From: an uncultured bacterium
GTDB lineage: Bacteria > Omnitrophota > Omnitrophia > Omnitrophales > Aquincolibacteriaceae
Direction: 5' to 3'
Assembly: GCA_964482725.1 (NCBI GenBank)
Contig: CAYZYT010000013.1
Span: forward strand, 1,465 to 65,464
DNA: 64,000 nucleotides
Shown: piece by piece, positions 4,916-38,431 of the stretch
Layout of the letters: each line of letters starts with the position of its first letter
How positions within the stretch are numbered: position 1 is the stretch's first letter
Notes under the pieces: generated by a model
Told to the model about the DNA's origin: nothing
Database searches by the model: none
Seen by the model: the letters and a program-made list of their open reading frames with translations, nothing else
Program-made: the position numbers and the translations under genes

Positions 4916-6501
4916 GACGCGGTCCTCGCGCAACGCCCGCCATAATCGGCTCCACGCGTCGTGTCGGCCGTGGCGGCTCGATCACGATCTGAAACTGCAA
5001 GCCGCACGACATCTGCGGAAGCAACAGACCAACCGCCGCCTTTCAAGCCACTCCCCACGGCATCGCTCAATCCCGGCCATGATTCATTGGCATCGCCTTG
5101 CGCAGTCAATCCGCCATCTCCGTGAGCTCCGTTAAACCCGCGGCCTTCTGAATTTCCGACAGTCACGACACGCTCCCACACATTTCCGGAAAGGTCCAGA
5201 TTGCCGTAATAACCCGCTCCCGAAGCAACGCGAGTCGTTGTGGAAGTCGTCGCAAAAATACCCACCCGAAGAGGACCGGTCCCCGACTCCGTAACGCCGG
5301 TAAAATTGACATTGCCATATAAAGCATTCGCACCGCTCGTGGTGATCGTTTCCCCGCCGGTCTCGGGCCCCGAAATCCCACTGCCCGCCGGTTTCATAAT
5401 GCTGTCATTGCCCCAGGCATATTCTCCCGCCACGGGAGCATTCCCCGCTCCGCGGCAGGCTTTTTCAAATTCAAGTTCCGTCATAGGTCTCAAACCAGCC
5501 CAGTCCGCATAGGCCGCAAGATCCATCCATGAAAGAAAACCGCAAGCTCGGGGCGAGCGCGTCGTCCGTGCGTCTCCAGACTCCCAAAAGATCGTATTTC
5601 GGCTCACCACGCCATCGCTGTTTTTCCCCGAAGCGGCCGTGATATCGCGCGTGGCCTTCTGAGTCGCGGTCAGTGTATTGAAAAAACCGACCCATTGCCC
5701 TTCCGAGATTTTATATTTCATCAGATAAAAAGGTGCATAACCTTTAGGGAACGCTGCCGCGAGCGGTCCCGCGCCGCCGATGCCACTCGGACCACCGTTC
5801 GACCAAAGGTTCCCCTCGACGGCGTTGATGGTAAGAGCTGCTTCCGAAGTAACCCGGTAAGGGATCGTAGCCCCATCGATCCACGACCCGTCCGTCAAAC
5901 TGTTCGATTCTGTTCCTCCGGAACCAACATAAAACGCCCCTTCAGGGATATAGACCATTTCGATTGCAAAAACATTGACCCGCGTCGACGTCGCACGAGC
6001 ATTCGCGTCACTCACACCATTCGCGGCATAATCCCAAACCAGTTTGATTCCGCTGGTGGAAACAGTCCCCGTCCCCGCACTCGAACGCCGGATAAAACAA
6101 CCCTTAAGATCCCCGGGGACCACCAGATCGATAGTCGTCCCGGTGCCGCGCTCAAAACCGGCGGGATTGGCGCCAGCAGTTTTGAGGATCGCGTGATGCC
6201 AAGAGGATCCGGAATCCGTGGAATATTTGACGAAAATCCAAACCGCATCATAATTGGCGGCATCGTACCAAGAGTTGTCCCACGAAATATTAAGACCGAT
6301 TTTTGCGGTATGGGTTCCGCTATCCTGATCCGCTACGACCACTCTGGAAACGCGTACATTATTGGCGAGAGCCGAAAGAGGAAAGGAGAGAACAAGGAGC
6401 GCTAAGGCCAAGGATATCTTCCAATTTCTTCCCCTGTCTAACTCCTTGCAGCAGAAGAGACTACCACCACTTACTTGTCTTAAAAAAGCTCTAAGCATCA
6501 A
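4912..6501 (-). CDS. FGE-sulfatase / DUF323 (SUMF1-like, C-type-lectin fold) domain protein with N-terminal signal/TM segment
   Basis: 529 aa ORF. Motifs VYIPEGAFYVGSGG, LMKYKISEGQWVGFF, GFLSWMDLAAYADWAGLRPMTELEFEKACRGAG, YAWGN, GNVWERV, GGGWSV match the formylglycine-generating-enzyme family. Stop TGA overlaps the start ATG of the downstream giant gene (ATGA). Confidence 0.8.
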   Translation of the reverse strand: MMLRAFLRQVSGGSLFCCKELDRGRNWKISLALALLVLSFPLSALANNVRVSRVVVADQDSGTHTAKIGLNISWDNSWYDAANYDAVWIFVKYSTDSGSSWHHAILKTAGANPAGFERGTGTTIDLVVPGDLKGCFIRRSSAGTGTVSTSGIKLVWDYAANGVSDANARATSTRVNVFAIEMVYIPEGAFYVGSGGTESNSLTDGSWIDGATIPYRVTSEAALTINAVEGNLWSNGGPSGIGGAGPLAAAFPKGYAPFYLMKYKISEGQWVGFFNTLTATQKATRDITAASGKNSDGVVSRNTIFWESGDARTTRSPRACGFLSWMDLAAYADWAGLRPMTELEFEKACRGAGNAPVAGEYAWGNDSIMKPAGSGISGPETGGETITTSGANALYGNVNFTGVTESGTGPLRVGIFATTSTTTRVASGAGYYGNLDLSGNVWERVVTVGNSEGRGFNGAHGDGGLTAQGDANESWPGLSDAVGSGLKGGGWSVASADVVRLAVSDRDRAATADTTRGADYGGRCARTAS

Positions 6502-6753: not shown

Positions 6754-7680
6754 TTACATCTCTTTTTGCATTTTCTCGAAATCTCTCTTGAGAGGCTCAT
6801 CCGGCGCTACTCGAGACAATTGATTCAAATCCCAGAGCCGCATCCTGATTTTCTTAGACTCTTCACTCGGCGGTTTTAGATTCAGATATTGTTGATAATA
6901 GGTCCTCGCCTCGATTTGTTTCGCCAAATGATAGTCGTAAATAATAGCAAGATTATGATAAGCCCATGCCAATTTCGGATTCAGATGGAGGGCTTTTTTA
7001 TACTGACCGATCGCATCTTCGTATCGCCCAAGATCGTAATACACATTGCCAAGATCAAAACAGGCTCCGACCAGCTGATCCTTGAGGCTCAAATTTTCGG
7101 AATTCACCCCGGCCACCATCCCCACCGAATTTTTTACGGACTCTTCATTCTTTTTCGCAACGTCAATGATCCGGCTACGTTCCGGCTCCAGAACCGACTG
7201 GTTCAAAAGCCCTTTTAATTTTTCATTGGTGTCGTTCAACTCTTGATTTTTTGCTGTGATCTCCTGACGCTGGACCGCCGTATCCAGGCTGCCGCCTTCC
7301 AGCTTCGCGATCTCTTTGCGCGATGCCTCGAGCTCAGACTTCAGCGTTTCGACCTGGGAGCTGATCTCACGCTCTTTCGCACCCCCACCGCTCTGCGTTT
7401 GCTGGGCCTGTAGCGCAAGGTCGTTCTTCTCCGCGGTAAGCTTCTCATAAGAATCCTGGAGATCTCGCATATTCTGGCGAACCCTGCGGTTTTCCTTCAA
7501 AGTTTCATTCAACGTATATAATATTTTCTCGACATTTTGTCCTTCCGGAGTCGAGGGGCCGACAGAAGCAGGGTCCTTCTCCTTGGCCGCAAACGCCAAA
7601 TTCGCATTGAACCCCAAGGACAAAACCAACACGCCCAGCCCGAAAATCTGAAAACTTTTAGGGAAGAAATTCCTCGTCAT
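6754..7680 (-). CDS. Secreted coiled-coil + C-terminal TPR protein (possible secretin-associated / pilotin-like)
   Basis: 308 aa; N-terminal signal peptide; long heptad-rich region (LKSELEASRKEIAKLEG...); C-terminal TPR (YYDLGRYEDAIGQYKKALHLNP, AWAYHNLAIIY). Start overlaps secretin stop (ATGA). Confidence 0.6.
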   Translation of the reverse strand: MTRNFFPKSFQIFGLGVLVLSLGFNANLAFAAKEKDPASVGPSTPEGQNVEKILYTLNETLKENRRVRQNMRDLQDSYEKLTAEKNDLALQAQQTQSGGGAKEREISSQVETLKSELEASRKEIAKLEGGSLDTAVQRQEITAKNQELNDTNEKLKGLLNQSVLEPERSRIIDVAKKNEESVKNSVGMVAGVNSENLSLKDQLVGACFDLGNVYYDLGRYEDAIGQYKKALHLNPKLAWAYHNLAIIYDYHLAKQIEARTYYQQYLNLKPPSEESKKIRMRLWDLNQLSRVAPDEPLKRDFEKMQKEM

Positions 7681-15727: not shown

Positions 15728-17473
15728 CTAGTAATTTGTGTTGAACGAGAAATGAAGCTGAGACTTCCCGGCTTCCGTGATCGGTTTGTCCCCGAGAGGA
15801 ATACCCCACTCAAGACGCGCCGAAAAATCCTTCCGGAAACGAAGCTCAAAACCACCTCCGACACCCAGCAGGAAATCAGACCGGGGTTCTCCGGAACTCG
15901 CATTGGGATCATGCGTTCGTCCGTAACCCATATCGCAAAAAGTGATGATGCTGAGCTGATCCTTCAGAGGGAGGGTGTCAAAAGGAAGTTTCCAGTGATC
16001 GGGTAAGCCATAGACCGGCAGCATGTAATCAAATCGCGACTGAAAACCCTCGTCCGCTCCATAATCGCTTTCAGGATAACCACGAATAGAACGGGCACCG
16101 CCCAAGAACAACTGCTCCTGAGGCAAAAGCTTGTCCGGCGAGAACTGCCCCTGGACATCCCAGATCGCTTTGGTGCGCCATGGCAATTGCGTGAGGCGGG
16201 TTAGCGAATAGGTGTACTTAAAAAAGGACTGCACACCGCCACGGCTCGCAAGGGCCCAATCATCGGGAAAGGTCGGCAGCCCAAAATAAATGCCCTGCCC
16301 CAATCCCCAACCGCCCCAACGATCGCGGGCCTGAAAGTCTCCTTTGAGCGATATCACGCGCTCCTTATCCCATACCGTAGTAACACTTTGCGTCAAGGTA
16401 TGCTTTTCCTTAAAATCAAACCCGAACTGGACATTGCCAGAATATTTTTCTGTGCGGATCACCCGCTGCTGCAAGCCCAAGCTGTAAACTTCGGAAGTTC
16501 CGTTAATGCCATAGATCGAAAACTCTTTCTTGGGATTGACTTGCGCGTGACTGATCGACCAGATAAATTTCGTTCCAAAATTCGAGACCGGGATCACATG
16601 ATAAAGATAAAGAGCCCCAAAGGCTTTGCCAAAGGTCGTCCCGATCAGGAACGTATCGTCAAGCCCTAGCATATTATTGTTCCGGATCGTGAACCCTTGA
16701 CGATCCTTCCCTGTCAGCTTGACCCCTTGGTTATCGAAGGAGTAGCCCAAGTGAAGGGGAAAATGATCTTCGACATCCAACACCACATCCGTCGTCCCTT
16801 TTTCAGCGCCCGCTTTAAGAACCGGCTTCACGGTCCGGTCAGGATTCTCGTTCATGTTCATGACATTCTCACGGATCTTATCGTAGCGGAGAACCTCGCC
16901 CTTGCGGATCTTCCAGTAGGATCGCGTGCGCCATTTGCTGTAATAGCGATTCTTCTCGATTGAAAGCTCTCCCATCCTCGAAGTCACCGCCTTGAGATGG
17001 ACCTCCTGGTTTTCCATTTTTTGGGGTGGGAGCAGAACGACCGCAATATAGCCCTTCGCGCGATACATTTGTTCAAGGGCATTGATAAGCCTCTGAAGTT
17101 CATCAAAATGAACTTCCCTATTCTCATATTTAACGAAAAGCGGCTCGTACTCTTTAGGATCGAGCATCATATCCCCTTCGAGGACGATCTTTTTGATAAA
17201 AAAAGAAGGACCTGTCGCCGGAGCTTCTGGGAGAGGCTCCTCCTCGAACGCTATGGGTTTGGTCGCTTTGGGTTGGAATAATTTCTCGCGGGCTTGATCA
17301 TCGATCTTGGATAACTGGACGGCGGCAGAAGCTCCAAAATTGCCGATCCGGTCTTCACTGGCCGCGAAGAGATGCCCGCTCTGGGCAAGGAAGCCCACAG
17401 AGAAAAAGAGAACGCCTAAAGACAAGATCTTAACTTTGAGTCGGCTCATAGGAGAAAAGACGACACTTTCCAT
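15728..17473 (-). CDS. ShlB/FhaC/HecB-family two-partner-secretion outer-membrane transporter (TpsB)
   Basis: 581 aa; signal peptide; POTRA region (FIKKIVLEGDMMLDPKEYEPLFVKYENREVHFDELQRLINALEQMYRAKGYI); C-terminal beta-barrel ending ...SQLHFSFNTNY with aromatic terminus. Confidence 0.75.
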   Translation of the reverse strand: MESVVFSPMSRLKVKILSLGVLFFSVGFLAQSGHLFAASEDRIGNFGASAAVQLSKIDDQAREKLFQPKATKPIAFEEEPLPEAPATGPSFFIKKIVLEGDMMLDPKEYEPLFVKYENREVHFDELQRLINALEQMYRAKGYIAVVLLPPQKMENQEVHLKAVTSRMGELSIEKNRYYSKWRTRSYWKIRKGEVLRYDKIRENVMNMNENPDRTVKPVLKAGAEKGTTDVVLDVEDHFPLHLGYSFDNQGVKLTGKDRQGFTIRNNNMLGLDDTFLIGTTFGKAFGALYLYHVIPVSNFGTKFIWSISHAQVNPKKEFSIYGINGTSEVYSLGLQQRVIRTEKYSGNVQFGFDFKEKHTLTQSVTTVWDKERVISLKGDFQARDRWGGWGLGQGIYFGLPTFPDDWALASRGGVQSFFKYTYSLTRLTQLPWRTKAIWDVQGQFSPDKLLPQEQLFLGGARSIRGYPESDYGADEGFQSRFDYMLPVYGLPDHWKLPFDTLPLKDQLSIITFCDMGYGRTHDPNASSGEPRSDFLLGVGGGFELRFRKDFSARLEWGIPLGDKPITEAGKSQLHFSFNTNY

Positions 17474-19993: not shown

Positions 19994-20560
19994 TTACGAC
20001 ATACTCCTGACAGAGATCCGGTCGAGGTAACTCAGATCGTCGGTATTGAGACGGATCGTTTCACCCTCGCTGACAAATTGCGGCACGAGAACGATGAGCC
20101 CGTTCTCGAGTTCAGCCTCCTTGAAATTCGCATCGGATCCCAGCCCCTTCGGCGTGCTCACCACCTTGAGCTCGACGATCTTTGGGAACGCAATACTCAG
20201 GACTTTCCCTTCCCCAAAAAGCACCTCGATCACTTCATTCTCCCGCAGGAACACCTCGTGTTTGCCGACCGCCTTGGCCGACAGGGGAAACTGATCGTAG
20301 CTCTCCATATTCATGAACATGAAATGGTCGCCTTCACGGTAAAGATATTGCATCTTCACAACATGGACATCCACTTCCTCCGCGTTCGCGTCCGCGGACA
20401 TTTTTTTCTCGATCACATTTCCTTCATCAAGGCTCCGGAGCTTCAACATCGCGCTCTTGCCGAATTTCCCTGTCCCGCGAATCTCCTGCGTCAAGACCTT
20501 GCAAAGCTTCCCGTCCACGCGAATCACATTCCCTACCCGTATTTCTGATGCAATGACCAT
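19994..20560 (-). CDS. efp: Elongation factor P
   Basis: 188 aa; MVIASEIRVGNVIRVDGKLCKVLTQEIRGTGKFGKSAMLKLRSL..., typical EF-P length with KOW and OB domains. Confidence 0.9.
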   Translation of the reverse strand: MVIASEIRVGNVIRVDGKLCKVLTQEIRGTGKFGKSAMLKLRSLDEGNVIEKKMSADANAEEVDVHVVKMQYLYREGDHFMFMNMESYDQFPLSAKAVGKHEVFLRENEVIEVLFGEGKVLSIAFPKIVELKVVSTPKGLGSDANFKEAELENGLIVLVPQFVSEGETIRLNTDDLSYLDRISVRSMS

Positions 20561-20596
20561 TTTTATTCCTCCGATTCATTAATCCTTGGCAAGAAA

Positions 20597-21289
20597 TTAC
20601 TGCAAAGGAGTCCAATTCACACTAGAGTTAGAAAAGCCCGTTAAACTACTCGAAATAGCCACTATCCAATAATTTCCTTTCTTGACGGAAAAAGAAACGG
20701 TTCCGTAATAAACTTTTATAGCAGGAGAGACGAGTATACTCATCTGAACGCTATCAACAGCAATGGGGGTGCAATCGCTTAAAGGGCTCGAGCTGCTGCA
20801 GGTGATCCCTTGAATAATGCCGTCCTTTGCAGTGGTGTTTATCTGCACCCATGCAGCCACAAACCCATCGCTCGCCGCGGGGCCATAAGTTGTGTTAGCG
20901 CTCTTCAAACTCGAAGACCCCAGAGACACGCCACCCCCGAGATTCTTCCAGGTGGTACCATCGGTCGTATACTTAAAATTTTCTGAGCCTGATGTATTAT
21001 TATAATAAATACTACCTGCTGCACCGGAGGGGTTCGATACCCCTCCCACAAATGTAAGAACCCCTGTTTGCGGCGTAGTCCCAGTATAGCCTAAGGTAAG
21101 TATCGTGCTTTGGAGCGCGGAATATTCCCCCATCGGCGCGGGATAGTAGGTCGTCAGCTCGATCTTTCCGGCGTAAGCCGAAGGCGCCATCGCTAGAACC
21201 CAAACGATCAGGCTGAATAAAACAGTGGTTTTTAACATAGCAGATCCTTTTTGTTGTTTTATGGCTTTTTTTGAATCCCCTCCGAGCAC
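20597..21289 (-). CDS. Small secreted protein, paralog A of the conserved-N-terminus family
   Basis: Signal peptide MLKTTVLFSLIVWVLAMAPSAYA, then GKIELTTYYPAPMGEY; Ser/Thr/Gly-rich C-terminal domain. N-terminal ~45 codons near-identical at DNA level to 21447..22133 and 24504..25178. Confidence 0.7.
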   Translation of the reverse strand: MLGGDSKKAIKQQKGSAMLKTTVLFSLIVWVLAMAPSAYAGKIELTTYYPAPMGEYSALQSTILTLGYTGTTPQTGVLTFVGGVSNPSGAAGSIYYNNTSGSENFKYTTDGTTWKNLGGGVSLGSSSLKSANTTYGPAASDGFVAAWVQINTTAKDGIIQGITCSSSSPLSDCTPIAVDSVQMSILVSPAIKVYYGTVSFSVKKGNYWIVAISSSLTGFSNSSVNWTPLQ

Positions 21290-21343
21290 TTAGAATCCTC
21301 AGGGACAGGTCTGCTTCGATTTTCCAGACCTGTCCCTGCAGTC
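21241..21343 (-). promoter_or_regulatory. Conserved ~105-bp 5' leader (copy 1) with perfect 10-bp inverted repeat GGACAGGTCT/AGACCTGTCC
   Basis: ...tgttgttttatggcttttttt...cttagaatcc...ggacaggtctgcttcgattttccagacctgtccctgcagtcaa; near-identical copy at 22134..22240. Confidence 0.6.
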
Positions 21344-21415
21344 AAGACCTTGCAAAGCTTCCCATCCTCCCGGATCACATTCCCCACCCAAATATCCGAT
21401 GCACCGATCGTTTAT
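21340..21415 (-). pseudogene. Degenerate duplicate of the efp 5' end (first ~25 codons plus a few upstream bases)
   Basis: 21342-21412 (agtcaagaccttgcaaagcttcccatcctcccggatcacattccccacccaaatatccgatgcaccgatcg) is ~80% identical to efp 20489-20560 (cgtcaagaccttgcaaagcttcccgtccacgcgaatcacattccctacccgtatttctgatgcaatgaccat). Confidence 0.6.
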
Positions 21416-21446
21416 GCCTACTCAGCTTAAGAACACGATCCGATGA

Positions 21447-22133
21447 CTAATACTTAATGCAGTAAACCACCGCCCGATTTTTGGGCCGAGTTTCTGTACC
21501 GCCCGTCCCCTCCGTAGTACCCCCTTGTCTTCCATAATGGACCGTAGAACCACTCGAGAAATAAAAGACAGGACTGCTTGTCCCCCATATAGCGCCGTTT
21601 GCAGTATGCGCATGTGATTTGAAATCATCGGTTTGGATTGACCCGAGGGTCCGTGTCGCGACGTCAGGGTCCACCCCGCCCAATCCGCGCAGGAAATAAC
21701 CGCGATAATCCGGAAGATTAAATGTGGAACTTCCGTCGCCCGTTCCATGGGTCGTCCCAATAGCGGCAAAAAGAGCCGCGTAGTTCGATCTTGATACCGC
21801 CGCGCCGTTACAAACCAGCCATCCAGACGGAGCCGCGGACATGGCAAAAGCCGAAACCATACCGGGAGGATTCCCGCCTGTGGTTCCCCAAGAGCTTCCA
21901 TCGCAAACCTGAACCTGATTGGTCGAGGAATCGTAGTACATCATCCCTTCTGCCGCGGCATTACACACGGGCTGTGACTTCGGAACAAGCTTGAGGGTGT
22001 TACTCTGCAACGTATCATACTCTCCCATGGGTGCGGGATAGTAAGTCGTCAGCTCCACTTTCCCGGCATACACGGACGGCGTCATCGCCAGAACCCAAAC
22101 GATCAAGCTGAATAAAACCGTGTTTTTAAACAT
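21447..22133 (-). CDS. Secreted phage tail-collar (MdpB-like) domain protein, paralog B
   Basis: Signal peptide + GKVELTTYYPAPMGEY; C-terminal LVCNGAAVSRSNYAALFAAIGTTHGTGDGSSTFNLPDYRGYFLRG...ETRPKNRAVVYCIKY matches the tail-collar / microcystin-dependent-protein fold. Confidence 0.75.
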   Translation of the reverse strand: MFKNTVLFSLIVWVLAMTPSVYAGKVELTTYYPAPMGEYDTLQSNTLKLVPKSQPVCNAAAEGMMYYDSSTNQVQVCDGSSWGTTGGNPPGMVSAFAMSAAPSGWLVCNGAAVSRSNYAALFAAIGTTHGTGDGSSTFNLPDYRGYFLRGLGGVDPDVATRTLGSIQTDDFKSHAHTANGAIWGTSSPVFYFSSGSTVHYGRQGGTTEGTGGTETRPKNRAVVYCIKY

Positions 22134-22240
22134 TGGAGATCCTTTTTGTTGTTTTATGGCTTTTTTCGAATCAACTTCGGATACTTAGAATCCGGAAGGA
22201 CAGGTCTACTTCGCTTTTCCAGACCTGTCCCTGCAGTCAA
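22134..22240 (-). promoter_or_regulatory. Conserved 5' leader (copy 2) with GGACAGGTCT...AGACCTGTCC palindrome
   Basis: ggagatcctttttgttgttttatggcttttttcgaatc...cttagaatcc...ggacaggtctacttcgcttttccagacctgtccctgcagtcaa; the CYTH-gene stop codon lies in the terminal tcaa. Confidence 0.6.
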
Positions 22241-22743
22241 CGCTTCCATCCAAACATCATCTGAAGATAAGATCTTTCTTCTCGATCTGTACGCGTGAGG
22301 CCCAGTCTCTTTTCAATCTTTTTGATGGATTGAGACTGCCCTTCGATCTCAAGAAAACGGCCGAATCCGGGCAATCGGTCTAATGTGATATGACTCTTGC
22401 CGAGGCGGTAAAGCTCTCTTTCTTTTTTGTAACACATGACGACTTTGAACCCCGCAAGGCACAGAATCTTTTTCATCAGAATATAATCCACAGGCGTTTC
22501 GATCTCCAGGCGCTTCGTAAATTCGGCTTTCATCCGCGACCCTTTAAGCGTCAGCGTAGCATCCTTCCCGTACTTCCGGAGCCGCATAGCAAGGCATTTC
22601 CCTCTGAGGTCTCCGTCCCGGTCAAAGAACTCGTTCGACTCGAATCCTCCGGCAACCTTCTTAGCGCCTATTTTTTGAAGCAGACCCCGAACCCGTTTCG
22701 GATCCTTCAGACGATATTTCTGTTCGATCTCAAAAAATCTCAT
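22237..22743 (-). CDS. CYTH-domain protein (CyaB-like class IV adenylate cyclase / triphosphate tunnel metalloenzyme)
   Basis: 168 aa; MRFFEIEQKYRL... N-terminal EIE.K motif, basic residues and the LEIE motif typical of CYTH. Confidence 0.65.
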   Translation of the reverse strand: MRFFEIEQKYRLKDPKRVRGLLQKIGAKKVAGGFESNEFFDRDGDLRGKCLAMRLRKYGKDATLTLKGSRMKAEFTKRLEIETPVDYILMKKILCLAGFKVVMCYKKERELYRLGKSHITLDRLPGFGRFLEIEGQSQSIKKIEKRLGLTRTDREERSYLQMMFGWKR

Positions 22744-22845
22744 AGACTCTAAACGCCTCGCTATAACAGCTTATCCCGTAGGGCAGGTTTTCCGCCTGCA
22801 AAGCAGGACGGATTCGTCAAACACCAAGCCGTCCGCTGAAAAACT

Positions 22846-22925
22846 CCGTCATCCTGAAACGATGCGCTGCATCGCGAAGGATCTCCGCTCGAGATTCTTC
22901 GCCCTCTCCGGGGCTCAGAATGACG
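22846..22925. mobile_element. MITE/REP-like nested palindromic element, copy B
   Basis: ccGTCATCCTGAaacgatgcgctgcatcGCGAAGGATCTCcgctcGAGATTCTTCGCCctctccggGGCTCAGAATGACG. Confidence 0.6.
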
Positions 22926-22949
22926 CGGGCCGGATTTTTCAGCAACCAG

Positions 22950-23504
22950 CTACGCCTGGATCAACATTTTATCGCGGACATTGTCGGCCAGGTCTTTTCC
23001 CACAAGTCGGGTAGCGATCACAAGCGCAAATTCCAGAGCCGTACCGGGGCCCTGGCTTGTGATAATATTCCCGTCCACCACCACTCGTTCCTTGGAATGA
23101 ATGGTCGTACTCGAAAAATCCGCTTCACAACCCGGATAGCAGGTCGCCTTCTTACCCTCGAGGATACCCAACGGCGCTAACACAACCGCCGGAGCGGCGC
23201 AGATCGCGGCCACGAGCTTTCCTTCGGCATTCATTCTTTTGATAAATTTCGAAACTTCTTCGGACTTGGCGAGATTCGTAGCTCCCGGAAGCCCTCCGGG
23301 AAGGATCACGACGTCGGGAAGGTCCTGGATATCTTTCAGAAGTGCGTCCGCGTGAATTCCGATCTTCCTTGAACTCGAAACAAGTCTGGAGTCTACGCCG
23401 GCCAAGGTCACCCGGACCCCTGCACGCCTCAGGACATCGATCGGCGCGATCGCTTCAAGTTCTTCAAACCCCTCTGCGAGAATCACAACCGCTGTTTTTG
23501 GCAT
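22950..23504 (-). CDS. DJ-1/PfpI family protein
   Basis: 184 aa; VAAICAAPAVVLAPLGILEGKKATCYPG (nucleophile-elbow Cys), VVILPGGLPG. Confidence 0.8.
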   Translation of the reverse strand: MPKTAVVILAEGFEELEAIAPIDVLRRAGVRVTLAGVDSRLVSSSRKIGIHADALLKDIQDLPDVVILPGGLPGATNLAKSEEVSKFIKRMNAEGKLVAAICAAPAVVLAPLGILEGKKATCYPGCEADFSSTTIHSKERVVVDGNIITSQGPGTALEFALVIATRLVGKDLADNVRDKMLIQA

Positions 23505-23515
23505 AGCCGCCCCTT

Positions 23516-23941
23516 TTACTGAGGTCCTGGATTTTGCGCATTCGGATCAACTTGTTCCACCACAAGCTTCTTCTGCCCGAAGATCCTGTCATTGGCAAAG
23601 ATCCGGAATTCATAATTCCCCGCGTGCATGAAACGCACCCCCCGGAGGTTAAACACCAGCTCATGTGCGTCGAGAGGACTCGGGACGCGCACTTCTTCCG
23701 GCATTTCGCTTTTGCCGATCATAGCATCACTTTGCAGGTCTACGAGTTCCAGCCGGAAGTGATAGCCCCCCTGCGCATCCGTCAGCTTGATATAGACGGA
23801 CATCGCAAAATGTGTGCAGGGAAACGTGGCCGCGCCGATATTCTCAAAAACCCCGATCAGACTTTTTTTGTTCGTGCCGCGCTCCGTGATCACGTAATCG
23901 CAGATGAGCATGGCGTTCGTTTTAGGTGTAGGAGATGTCAT
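23516..23941 (-). CDS. Hypothetical protein
   Basis: 141 aa ORF, no recognised motifs. Confidence 0.45.
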   Translation of the reverse strand: MTSPTPKTNAMLICDYVITERGTNKKSLIGVFENIGAATFPCTHFAMSVYIKLTDAQGGYHFRLELVDLQSDAMIGKSEMPEEVRVPSPLDAHELVFNLRGVRFMHAGNYEFRIFANDRIFGQKKLVVEQVDPNAQNPGPQ

Positions 23942-23974
23942 AAAACCCTTTCGTTAGGCCGCCCAACATAATGA

Positions 23975-24040
23975 CCGTCATCCTGAGCGAAGCGAAGGAT
24001 CTCGCTTCGGGATTCTTCGCCCTACGGGCTCAGAATGACG
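23975..24040. mobile_element. MITE/REP-like nested palindromic element, copy C (compact form)
   Basis: ccGTCATCCTGAGCgaaGCGAAGGATCTCgcttcgGGATTCTTCGCCctacgGGCTCAGAATGACG. Confidence 0.65.
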
Positions 24041-24076
24041 CATTTTGTTAATGGCTCTTAATAGTTTTTTAAAAAT

Positions 24077-24364
24077 CTATCCAAATTTATAATGTTTCTT
24101 AACAGCTCGCTTGATATTCCAAACGCATTTCAGCCCCTGGGGGAATGTCACAAGATCCCCTTTGCCAAACGAGACCTCGCCCTCTGGAGTCTTCACAATC
24201 ACCTCGCCCTCCAGAAAATAGCAAATCTCTTGCTCATCGTAATACCAGTCAAAGCTCGAGACCTCTTTCGTCCAGATGGGCCATGAAAACACTCCCAGGG
24301 CATTCAGCTTTTCGCTCGTGGGTTTTTCCACCAAAATCTTCAAGGTCGCTTTTCCTGCCGCCAC
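24077..24364 (-). CDS. Cupin-domain protein (small, single barrel)
   Basis: 95 aa; ...WPIWTKEVSSFDWYYDEQEICYFLEGEVIVKTPEGEVSFGKGDLVTFPQG..., cupin-like strands. Confidence 0.55.
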   Translation of the reverse strand: MAAGKATLKILVEKPTSEKLNALGVFSWPIWTKEVSSFDWYYDEQEICYFLEGEVIVKTPEGEVSFGKGDLVTFPQGLKCVWNIKRAVKKHYKFG

Positions 24365-24503
24365 GATACGCCTCTCGCGTTTTTAAGAGGAACGCCGTTA
24401 AGCCCCGGACTTAAAAAGATTTTCAAAGTGGGTTCATATTTCCGGCTTTTAAGTGCCTTTGGCCTGTCTGTCCCATAGGAGTATTTCTACTTTGGTTGGA
24501 CAC

Positions 24504-25178
24504 TTATTCCCATAAAAGAAGGCGCCAATAGCCTGTGTTATATGTATTCTCAGCATAAGTAGTTTCATTGTAATATCTAAACAGTGGCGTGCCGGTTTTA
24601 ATAGTAAATATAACCGTAGAACTGGTTAATCTGACGGTTACGGGATTGGATAATCCATATGTGTTTATTGATCTGGAATAAATAGAAGCGGGTGAAGAAG
24701 AAGTAGCAAAAAACAATTCCGTTCTCCTGGGGAGGACCCCGAGCTGATGCGAAAAAGTGGTTAAATGGTCGTCAGTTGTATTATCCGCAACCCAGCCCGA
24801 ATCATAATCTGGCTCTGCCCCTCCCAAATTCTTCCAGCTAGAACCGTCGCTGTAAAGCATCCCGCCAACACCCGCTCCATTGCCGTCTGAACTGTATCTT
24901 ATTGAACCCGCTGTGCCGCCACTTTGAGCGCCGGCGTTGCCGGTGACCGGAGCCAGCGTCAGAGTATTATCCACAGCTAGAATCGCATGATTCGTGGTCG
25001 ATCCCACATTAACACCCCCCGACGTAGAAGCAAAAGCTGCGTTCTCCGTAGTGCTTAATGTTTTATATTCTCCGTACGGCGCAGGATAGTAGGTCGTCAG
25101 CTCCACTTTCCCGGCATAAGCAGATGGCGTCATTGCCAGGATCAAAAAAATCATGGTTGTTTTTTGGATCAGGCGCAT
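24504..25178 (-). CDS. Small secreted protein, paralog C of the conserved-N-terminus family
   Basis: Signal peptide ...MIFLILAMTPSAYA + GKVELTTYYPAPYGEY; shares a G-[SM]-[IM]-[YR]-Y...DGS[ST]W[KG]NLGG-type motif with paralogs A/B; unrelated C-terminus. DNA 25085-25140 is ~90% identical to 22030-22085. Confidence 0.7.
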   Translation of the reverse strand: MRLIQKTTMIFLILAMTPSAYAGKVELTTYYPAPYGEYKTLSTTENAAFASTSGGVNVGSTTNHAILAVDNTLTLAPVTGNAGAQSGGTAGSIRYSSDGNGAGVGGMLYSDGSSWKNLGGAEPDYDSGWVADNTTDDHLTTFSHQLGVLPRRTELFFATSSSPASIYSRSINTYGLSNPVTVRLTSSTVIFTIKTGTPLFRYYNETTYAENTYNTGYWRLLLWE

Positions 25179-38021: not shown

Positions 38022-38150
38022 CCAGGATTGGCGCCTCCGCTTCGCTCCGGTCGGCCACCCGCACTTACAAACATGACCTTTGTCATGTTTGTGAACAAGT
38101 GCTCCCTTCAATCCTTGGTACTTCCCTTTCCAAATCCTTCATGAATAAAA

Positions 38151-38224
38151 TGTCGGGGGCCAGGATTGAACTGGCGACCTAGGGCTTATGAGTCCCTCGC
38201 TCTAGCCAACTGAGCTACCCCGAC
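38151..38224 (-). tRNA. tRNA with CAT anticodon (elongator Met or Ile2/lysidine type), adjacent to tilS
   Basis: Minus sense: GTCGGGGTAGCTCAGTTGGCTAGAGCGAGGGACTCATAAGCCCTAGGTCGCCAGTTCAATCCTGGCCCCCGACA. 7-bp acceptor with G1:C72 pair (not initiator type), D arm, anticodon loop CTCATAA, T arm GCCAG/TTCAATC/CTGGC. CCA not encoded. Confidence 0.85.
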
Positions 38225-38431
38225 ATAATGATCTCAACAAAGAAGAGAAAGAAAAATCAGTCAGAATAAAATTGCCAAGAACCGTTTAAAATTCGAGACT
38301 TTCCCTCACCCCAGCAGATTCGAGGTCGGGTATATTAACATAGCTTCGCGCGAACACACAAGTACGGTTGCACGAAAAGAGGCGCCTAAATCATTCTTTA
38401 CAGGACCCGCTTCGAAGCGTAGACTGAACGC

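Follow-up and report, generated by a model that had tools for sequence, protein, structure and literature searches.

A large Omnitrophota family of small, fibre-like exported proteins with a conserved N-terminal peptide and diverse tips

The mosaic adhesive trimer (MAT) fibres of Bdellovibrio bacteriovorus carry a signal peptide and a family-wide N-terminal domain, fall into S74 and non-S74 subfamilies, and have swapped tips (Caulton et al. 2024, PMC10769870). In TcpF of Vibrio cholerae and CofJ of enterotoxigenic Escherichia coli, a disordered mature N-terminus that depends on aromatic residues hooks a trimer of the minor pilin at the pilus tip; these proteins are Sec-exported and soluble, are trimeric on the pilus, and are encoded in the pilus operon (PMC9565799, PMC10120004, PMC6048534). 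Here we describe three genes, A, B and C, in a 64-kb window of DNA from an uncultured bacterium of the phylum Omnitrophota (64,000 nucleotides; assembly GCA_964482725.1, contig CAYZYT010000013.1, positions 1,465 to 65,464). The three genes are members of a large, Omnitrophota-restricted family of small Sec-exported proteins that are built like miniature phage tail fibres and have one short N-terminal module in common. The Omnitrophota are uncultured, mostly ultra-small and suspected of being predatory or parasitic, and the debate on their attachment has centred on type IV/Tad pili and giant open reading frames (ORFs).

As an overall architecture, fibres with swappable tips behind a conserved N-terminal element are already known in kind from a bacterium that lives on other cells. 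Like the MAT fibres, the family forms a set of multiple paralogues in bacteria suspected of depending on other cells, and combines a signal peptide, a conserved N-terminal element and a phage-like, probably trimeric fibre with exchanged, unrelated tips. It likewise includes S74 and non-S74 subfamilies (S74 in 15/87 and 19/111 of the proteins scanned), and the N-terminal element of the MAT fibres has been proposed to bind a surface element of the cell. Judged by description, however, that element is a folded, beta-rich domain of ~130 amino acids (aa), whereas the element found here is an unstructured peptide of 16-20 residues. The MAT proteins are also longer (~600-1,150 aa, against a median of ~220 aa) and belong to another phylum, and their surface location and prey binding are experimental, whereas the present family is known from sequence alone. 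The domain repertoire is that of phage tail fibres (the T4 gp12 collar and the S74 endosialidase chaperone), in which a constant N-terminus likewise attaches the fibre, a variable C-terminus serves the receptor, and mosaic recombination occurs at conserved joints; the family differs from these fibres in its Sec signal peptides, its housekeeping context, the absence of its motif from viral contigs and its much shorter proteins.

A conserved peptide at the predicted mature N-terminus

Genes A, B and C are three ORFs on the minus strand of the window, by which we mean the whole 64-kb stretch analysed:

Gene A: 20597..21238, minus strand; 213 aa; signal peptide, module, short stalk motif and a predicted TNF/C1q-like jelly-roll tip.
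Gene B: 21447..22133, minus strand; 228 aa; signal peptide, module, stalk motif and a phage tail-collar (T4 gp12-like) receptor-binding domain.
Gene C: 24504..25178, minus strand; 224 aa; signal peptide, module, longer stalk and a tip without a recognised family.

An initial annotation of this DNA had given gene A the span 20597..21289. Its start is most likely the ATG at 21238, which yields 213 aa, and not the GTG at 21289, because this ATG aligns with the start and the ribosome-binding site of gene B and because a 213-aa product has been called in four independent assemblies. All three genes encode a hydrophobic signal peptide that ends in A-Y-A and is followed by GK[VI]ELTTYYPAP[MY]GEY; this common feature had been reported at the outset and is borne out by the ORFs and their translations. 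A six-frame translation of the window contains the motif at these three places only. A motif search and a table of cleavage-site residues place the mature N-terminal peptides as follows:

Peptide of gene A, GKIELTTYYPAPMGEY: 21122..21169, minus strand.
Peptide of gene B, GKVELTTYYPAPMGEY: 22017..22064, minus strand.
Peptide of gene C, GKVELTTYYPAPYGEY: 25065..25112, minus strand.

The search for other genes starting with the module, suggested in the initial annotation, revealed a large family with diverse C-termini. A degenerate DNA scan with the pattern L-T-T-Y-Y-P-x-P-x-G-[DE]-Y across the genomes of 185,579 species, with one genome per species, returned 59 stretches, while ~0.3 chance matches would be expected by our own estimate from the information content of the pattern. 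Forty-two of these stretches lie in metagenome-assembled genomes (MAGs) labelled Candidatus Omnitrophota/Omnitrophica and 17 under generic labels ("uncultured bacterium", "uncultured Planctomycetia"), with up to five pattern-bearing contigs in a single MAG. The same pattern gave at least 120 matches in metagenome contigs and 0 matches in 2.9 million viral contigs. When a 48-position profile of the module was searched against 1.84 billion representatives of clusters at 50% identity, 2,191 proteins matched at E<=1e-3 and 175 at E<=1e-10, and the best 150 matches all lay at the N-terminus (150/150). A full-length search with C retrieved 34 proteins, all of which carry YAGKVELTTYYPAPYGEYK right after the signal peptide and have very different C-terminal halves. 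Family proteins are typically 150-500 aa in length, with a median of ~220 aa.

Searches of A, B and C returned 0 NCBIfam families at E<=1, and Pfam gave no match covering the module in these three proteins or in the 198 family members scanned. PHROGs contained no match to the module, and a profile search of the PDB with it gave spurious signal-peptide matches at E>0.02 and nothing else. None of ~8 million full texts contains LTTYYP, TTYYPAP or TTYYPSP, and the main Omnitrophota papers treat pili and giant ORFs and leave the module family unmentioned. These results from Pfam, NCBIfam, the PDB and the full-text literature agree with the earlier remark that the module was not recognised as a known sorting signal. 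In the databases and texts searched, the family appears to be undescribed, as regards the peptide, the size of the family, its restriction to Omnitrophota, and the cassette slots and pilin linkage reported below. It adds a third candidate attachment element in Omnitrophota beside pili and giant ORFs, and one that the invariant peptide makes easy to track: the peptide offers a sequence handle with which candidate host-recognition proteins can be catalogued in any Omnitrophota MAG and strain-level variation of the tips can be followed.

The position of the peptide relative to the signal-peptidase site was examined in 199 distinct N-termini, in which the invariant Leu lies at median position 27. 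Counted from this Leu, Ala (65%) or Val (15%) stands at -7, Tyr or Phe (74%) at -6, and Ala (89%) at -5. Small residues occupy both -7 and -5 in 176/199 N-termini, and a stricter scan of offsets for the cleavage box peaks at -5 (168/199). A predicted signal-peptidase I A-x-A site lies exactly four residues before the invariant Leu; signal peptides and cleavage site were judged by inspection and from the table of residues by position. The residues between the box and the Leu are G-K-V-E or, in other members, E-D-I-T, E-E-V-T or D-S-V-T, and the conserved block reads L-T-T-Y-Y-P-[AS]-P-x-G-[ED]-Y-x-x-L, including a conserved Leu at +14. Invariance at the positions of the pattern is partly forced by the search itself; the unforced positions -2, +6, +8 and +14 and the profile search agree with it. 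Since the cleavage box is fixed at four residues before the Leu, the motif would form the N-terminus of the mature protein, which is predicted to start GKVELTTYYPAPYGEYK.

A Sec-type signal peptide, consisting of a hydrophobic core followed by the A-x-A box, is predicted in all members. Genes A and B are tandem duplicates with leader DNA in common, and the module is homogenised within genomes; both observations would be expected if the genes had in common only a generic signal peptide and a recent duplication or conversion of DNA, with no function specific to the peptide. The initial annotation had itself raised a generic signal peptide as an alternative to its proposal. However, the invariant residues lie after the predicted cleavage site, and the hydrophobic core of the signal peptide is variable while the mature peptide is conserved. 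The motif is kept across species-level MAGs in which the invariant residues use all synonymous codons, so that the constraint acts on the protein. The module is furthermore present in 2,191 clusters at 50% identity, while PDB and profile searches reach signal peptides only at E>0.02. An explanation by repeated DNA is contradicted by profile reach, codon use and cleavage-site position, and we regard it as hardly credible.

Sequence conservation stops ~15 residues past GEY. In AlphaFold2 (AF2) monomer models of A and C, the peptide had a predicted local distance difference test score (pLDDT) of 32-53 and no secondary structure; structure prediction of the module, another step suggested at the outset, accordingly found no fold for it. 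These models are consistent with a linear motif that would gain order only when it meets a partner. The products of A, B and C had no match to the Pfam N_methyl family of type IV pilins and pseudopilins; in those proteins a hydrophobic helix comes after a class III signal peptide (G|F-T-L-x-E), whereas here the hydrophobic segment precedes the cleavage site.

The peptide could also be a structural part of the fibre itself, such as a trimer cap, a registration element or a folding nucleus, with no role in docking or export. The family is fibre-like, many trimeric fibres need nucleation elements, and S74 is found in 34/198 members; the peptide, rich in Tyr and Pro and with a conserved Leu at +14, might interlock with its copies in a trimer, and a monomer AF2 model is blind to such a role. 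Yet the stalks that follow the peptide are heterogeneous in length and sequence, where a nucleus would be expected to co-vary with them, and the constant spacing of four residues between the signal-peptidase site and the invariant Leu speaks for a function of the free N-terminus. The peptide is also missing from phage tail fibres that have the same domains (0 viral matches). A purely internal role appears unlikely on this evidence.

Stalks, tips and cassette dynamics

From the start codon to GEY, DNA identity is 82.9% between A and B, 68.1% between A and C, and 67.5% between B and C, and the 60 nucleotides (nt) encoding the motif are 78-82% identical in each pair. The initial estimate of ~90% identity over the first ~130 bp was too high. 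Right after the motif, identity among the three genes falls to ~45%, the level of unrelated sequence under the same alignment. The genes had been said to diverge completely from there. The sharp boundary is real, but a second short motif is kept by A, B and C, which reads G-x-x-G-[SM]-[IM]-x-Y ... D-G-[ST]-[ST]-W-x-x-x-G-G and lies in the stalk:

Stalk motif of gene A (AAGSIYYN...DGTTWKNLGG): 20933..21022, minus strand; repeat D5 matches the copy in C.
Stalk motif of gene B (AEGMMYYDS...DGSSWGTTGG): 21873..21953, minus strand.
Stalk motif of gene C (GTAGSIRYSS...DGSSWKNLGG): 24819..24917, minus strand; best-predicted part of the AF2 model.

The three tips differ. Gene B matched the Pfam family Collar (PF07484) over residues 91-147 with 85 bits against a cut-off of 24 (E 3.4e-24), the PHROG for tail collar fibre at E 6.5e-37, and T4 gp12 and the long tail fibre in the PDB at E 3e-7 to 1e-5 (T4 gp12 at E 1e-5); the tail-collar domain recognised by the first reading of the sequence was thereby confirmed. 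The description of gene A as S/T/G-rich captured only part of the protein, which is not simply of this composition and ends in a predicted beta-sandwich tip. The AF2 model of gene C is confident only over residues 75-125.

Among the 198 members scanned against Pfam, Peptidase_S74 (chaperone of endosialidase) was found in 34, and the other domains were Collar, Gp53-like_C, Gp34_trimer, Peptidase_G2, Lcl_C, dockerin and glycine-rich domains. VGIGT repeats occur in many members. GIGT repeats and the S74 chaperone are marks of trimeric fibres, and, by domain assignment, the family is made from the components of trimeric phage fibres. When the last 90 residues of 162 module proteins were grouped by BLAST, 87 clusters resulted, of which 63 contain a single protein; the S74 domain makes up the largest, with 31 members. 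Tips and stalks are mixed. The tip of gene A recurs in P0013, P0018, P0038, P0072 and P0130 behind different stalks, the stalk of gene C is 60-73% identical to more than ten homologues with unrelated tips, and the tip of gene C is otherwise found only in P0002. This mixing points to recombination at two joints, of which the first follows GEY and the second W-x-x-L-G-G.

With Collar, S74, Gp53-like and Gp34_trimer domains, and with tail-fibre PHROG matches for B, the genes might be taken for tail fibres of a prophage, a tailocin or an extracellular contractile injection system in which the N-terminus attaches to the baseplate, and a constant N-terminus with a variable C-terminus is the rule for phage fibres. 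Every member, however, has a Sec-type signal peptide, whereas the parts of virions and tailocins are put together in the cytoplasm. Around A, B and C lie housekeeping genes (efp, PEBP, CYTH, DJ-1, DUF6941, cupin, PD-(D/E)XK, a radical-SAM gene and pdxJ) in a synteny conserved across strains, with no capsid, sheath, tube or baseplate gene among them. The proteins are only ~200-270 aa long, and the motif had no match among the viral contigs. Context, signal peptides and the lack of viral matches contradict an origin of this kind, which we consider very improbable.

The similarity of A and B extends upstream of the start codon into a leader of ~105 nt, and together with it forms a direct repeat of 224 nt that is 85% identical:

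5' module of cassette A (direct repeat D1): 21122..21345, minus strand, 224 nt; leader of ~105 nt with hairpin, ribosome-binding site, signal peptide and motif.
5' module of cassette B: 22017..22240, minus strand, 224 nt; 85% identical to the copy of A; begins 1 nt after the CYTH stop codon.
Leader hairpins of A and B: 21302-21336 and ~22196-22232, minus strand.
Pseudo-copy of the first 73 nt of efp, between B and A: 21341..21413, minus strand; 82% identical to the true efp 5' end at 20490-20562 and interrupted by stop codons.

The hairpin, CAGGGACAGGUCUGG-N11-CAGACCUGUCCCUG, has a perfect stem of 13-14 bp, folds with z-scores of -2.0 to -5.2 and stands at the start of the common leader. It was not found upstream of gene C or in the rest of the window. 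Its function may lie in regulation, stabilisation or insulation; a scan for a terminator found no T-run after the stem.

The recent history of the cassettes was traced by comparison with a contig from another sample (L066) that is ~94% identical to the window and collinear with it, and in which the hairpin lies upstream of 4/4 cassettes. Four module genes (P0004, the B orthologue, P0039 and the A orthologue) occupy the CYTH-efp slot of L066, and two occupy that of the window. The alignment of window and L066 breaks, at the junctions of insertion or deletion, inside the repeated 224-bp 5' module, which is what unequal recombination between modules would produce. Decayed copies of efp are also found in L066 at 6110-6194 and 7074-7164, where an ORF of 37 aa starts MVIA like EF-P, and behind each cassette lies a degenerate copy of the 73 nt with which efp begins. 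These scars indicate that the array grew by tandem duplication of a unit running from the module to efp; the tip segments were replaced after tandem duplication had built the array.

A more distant contig (L067) has the same two slots. One, between PD-(D/E)XK and cupin, holds P0007, and the other, between CYTH and efp, holds P0005 and P0008, all of which have tips other than those of the window genes. The 87 tip clusters among 162 proteins, the four genes against two in L066 and the different tips of L067 uphold the initial proposal of a cassette system with swappable tips. The gene conversion proposed with it also found support. The A modules of the window and L066 are 85% identical within flanks that are 94% identical, whereas paralogous modules inside L066 are 88-89% identical to one another (89% for A and P0039), and the L066 modules of A and P0039 have derived residues in common (LIAWGLLTAPLAYAG...YYPSP). 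Modules that are less alike between orthologues than within a genome bear the signature of gene conversion.

Candidate docking partners and genomic context

The proteins probably act as exported, likely trimeric fibres that have a docking or export peptide in common at the N-terminus and swappable tips at the other end. In the proposed mechanism, signal peptidase I would cut after A-[YF]-A and expose the nearly invariant, unstructured, Tyr/Pro-rich sequence x-x-[VI]-x-L-T-T-Y-Y-P-[AS]-P-x-G-[ED]-Y at the mature N-terminus. A short beta-hairpin stalk would follow, sometimes with GIGT repeats and a C-terminal S74 intramolecular chaperone, and a variable ligand-binding tip would stand at the end: a jelly roll in A, a collar in B and a tip without an assigned fold in C. 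The peptide would be a common docking or export handle through which every paralogue uses one cellular partner, for which a type IV pilus-like filament is the likeliest candidate, either its tip or its secretion route. The tips would form a repertoire of specificities with which the surfaces of hosts, prey or substrates could be bound. This repertoire would evolve by tandem duplication and deletion through recombination between the 224-bp 5' modules, by gene conversion of the module, and by replacement of tips at the joints between module and stalk and between stalk and tip. The peptide and its diverse tips may be how tiny, possibly host-dependent bacteria recognise other cells.

The neighbourhood of the family was surveyed by all-against-all clustering of the ORFs from the 59 genome loci. 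A pilin operon was the only recurrent neighbour outside housekeeping functions; the other recurrent clusters were housekeeping genes (guaA, lpxD-like, SurA-like). In at least nine MAGs, genes on one strand follow the order minor-pilin-like c8, c4 and c5, major-pilin-like c1 (one to four copies), module genes (one to three), guaB-like and guaA, with gaps of 48-190 bp in the pilin and module gene order and with SurA-like and LpxD-like genes divergently upstream. Clusters c1 and c4 pass the Pfam N_methyl threshold, and c8 is a weak match.

Pilin-module locus: L046, 3809-6984; also in L007, L020, L022, L025, L028, L044, L053 and L061.

L028 and L061 also hold degenerate variants of the module, VEYPTLYPAPNGDY and ELTTFYPAPYGEY.

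A pilin-like ORF ends at most 400 bp upstream on the same strand in 16/139 module genes (~11%), counting those with at least 500 bp of visible upstream DNA in genome and metagenome loci, where ~1.5 would be expected by our own arithmetic from the density of pilin-like ORFs in the same loci. The linkage of ~11% of the genes suggests a partner at the pilus tip, as for TcpF and CofJ. The family resembles these proteins in having a signal peptide and a fixed aromatic peptide of predicted disorder (pLDDT 32-53) at the mature N-terminus, in being a probably trimeric cargo and, in part, through the ~11% of genes that directly follow pilin genes. The position of the peptide at the new N-terminus, its predicted disorder, the invariant Tyr and the partial synteny with pilins fit a pilus-tip model without proving it. 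The resemblance has limits: there is no sequence similarity, and binding is proposed here by analogy. TcpF and CofJ are each the single cargo of a type IVb pilus (T4bP) with one trimeric minor pilin, whereas the present proteins number thousands, with several in a genome, and are mostly unlinked to pilins.

Several points weigh against a pilus-docked fibre. That the peptide binds a partner and serves as a docking or export handle is inferred, as are a place on or outside the cell surface, a role as adhesin and the choice of docking partner; trimer formation is deduced from domain families. The window holds no pilin-like ORFs, so that A, B and C are not beside pilin genes, and ~89% of family genes sit among unrelated housekeeping genes. 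Some of the metagenome loci counted for pilin linkage duplicate genome loci. The pilin-linked MAGs are moderately related (guaA 85-92% identical), and the synteny may reflect shared ancestry and not function. The linked pilin clusters carry several minor pilins, which makes them type IVa pilus (T4aP)-like or type II secretion system (T2SS)-like, in contrast to the single trimeric minor pilin of the T4bP. As regards the tips, the AF2 models of A and C have a mean pLDDT of ~63 each, so that the assignment of the gene A tip to a TNF/C1q-like jelly roll is of moderate confidence, and the gene C tip had no recognised family in Pfam or NCBIfam, and none was assigned.

The more specific proposal is tentative: the peptide could be a hitherto unrecognised, phylum-specific signal for export and docking, which would load interchangeable miniature tail-fibre adhesins onto a filament tip, be it that of a type IV pilus or of a T2SS-like structure. 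A single genome has several of these proteins, and the phylum has thousands of types. How T2SS and T4aP systems recognise their substrates is otherwise little understood. If a partner at the pilus tip proves true, the linear N-terminal export signal of TcpF and CofJ would be extended to a system with many cargoes, and ultra-small, putatively predatory or parasitic bacteria would possess a phage-like, rapidly diversifying system of host recognition.

A partner other than a pilus is suggested by an orphan TpsB-type transporter that lies 3 kb from the array (window 15728-17473, minus strand; ShlB E 2e-24, POTRA_2 E 2e-14), has no TpsA-like gene beside it, and is kept in the syntenic loci L067 and L052. 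The peptide could then be a sorting or anchoring signal recognised, by beta-augmentation, by the POTRA domains of an Omp85/TpsB transporter, or could bind peptidoglycan or an outer-membrane component. Its alternating V-x-L-x-T-x-Y pattern is typical of an edge beta-strand, most family genes lie away from pilin genes, and in some alpha-proteobacteria conserved motifs at the mature N-terminus link outer-membrane proteins to peptidoglycan. Against this, proximity of a ShlB homologue to module genes is confined to loci that share synteny with the window (1/59 genome loci), and A, B and C contain no two-partner secretion (TPS) domain in Pfam or NCBIfam. The first two mature residues vary (GK, ED, EE, DS), which argues against a chemistry of the N-terminal residue. 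Such a partner is accordingly judged improbable, and a pilus-like filament remains the partner favoured in the mechanism above.

Further features of the window were recorded. A DUF6941 protein (23516-23941, minus strand) is encoded between the two slots of fibre genes and is conserved in the related contigs L001, L066 and L067. An imperfect palindrome of 32 nt, GCGAAGGATCTC...GAGATTCTTCGC, is present in two copies that are 88% identical (22874-22905 and 23992-24023), directly downstream of the DJ-1 and cupin genes, and is terminator-like or resembles a repetitive extragenic palindromic element. A single tRNA-Met lies at 38150-38225. GC skew is negative in 32/32 bins of 2 kb, and the minus strand carries nearly all long ORFs, consistent with a window that belongs to one replichore with the minus strand leading.

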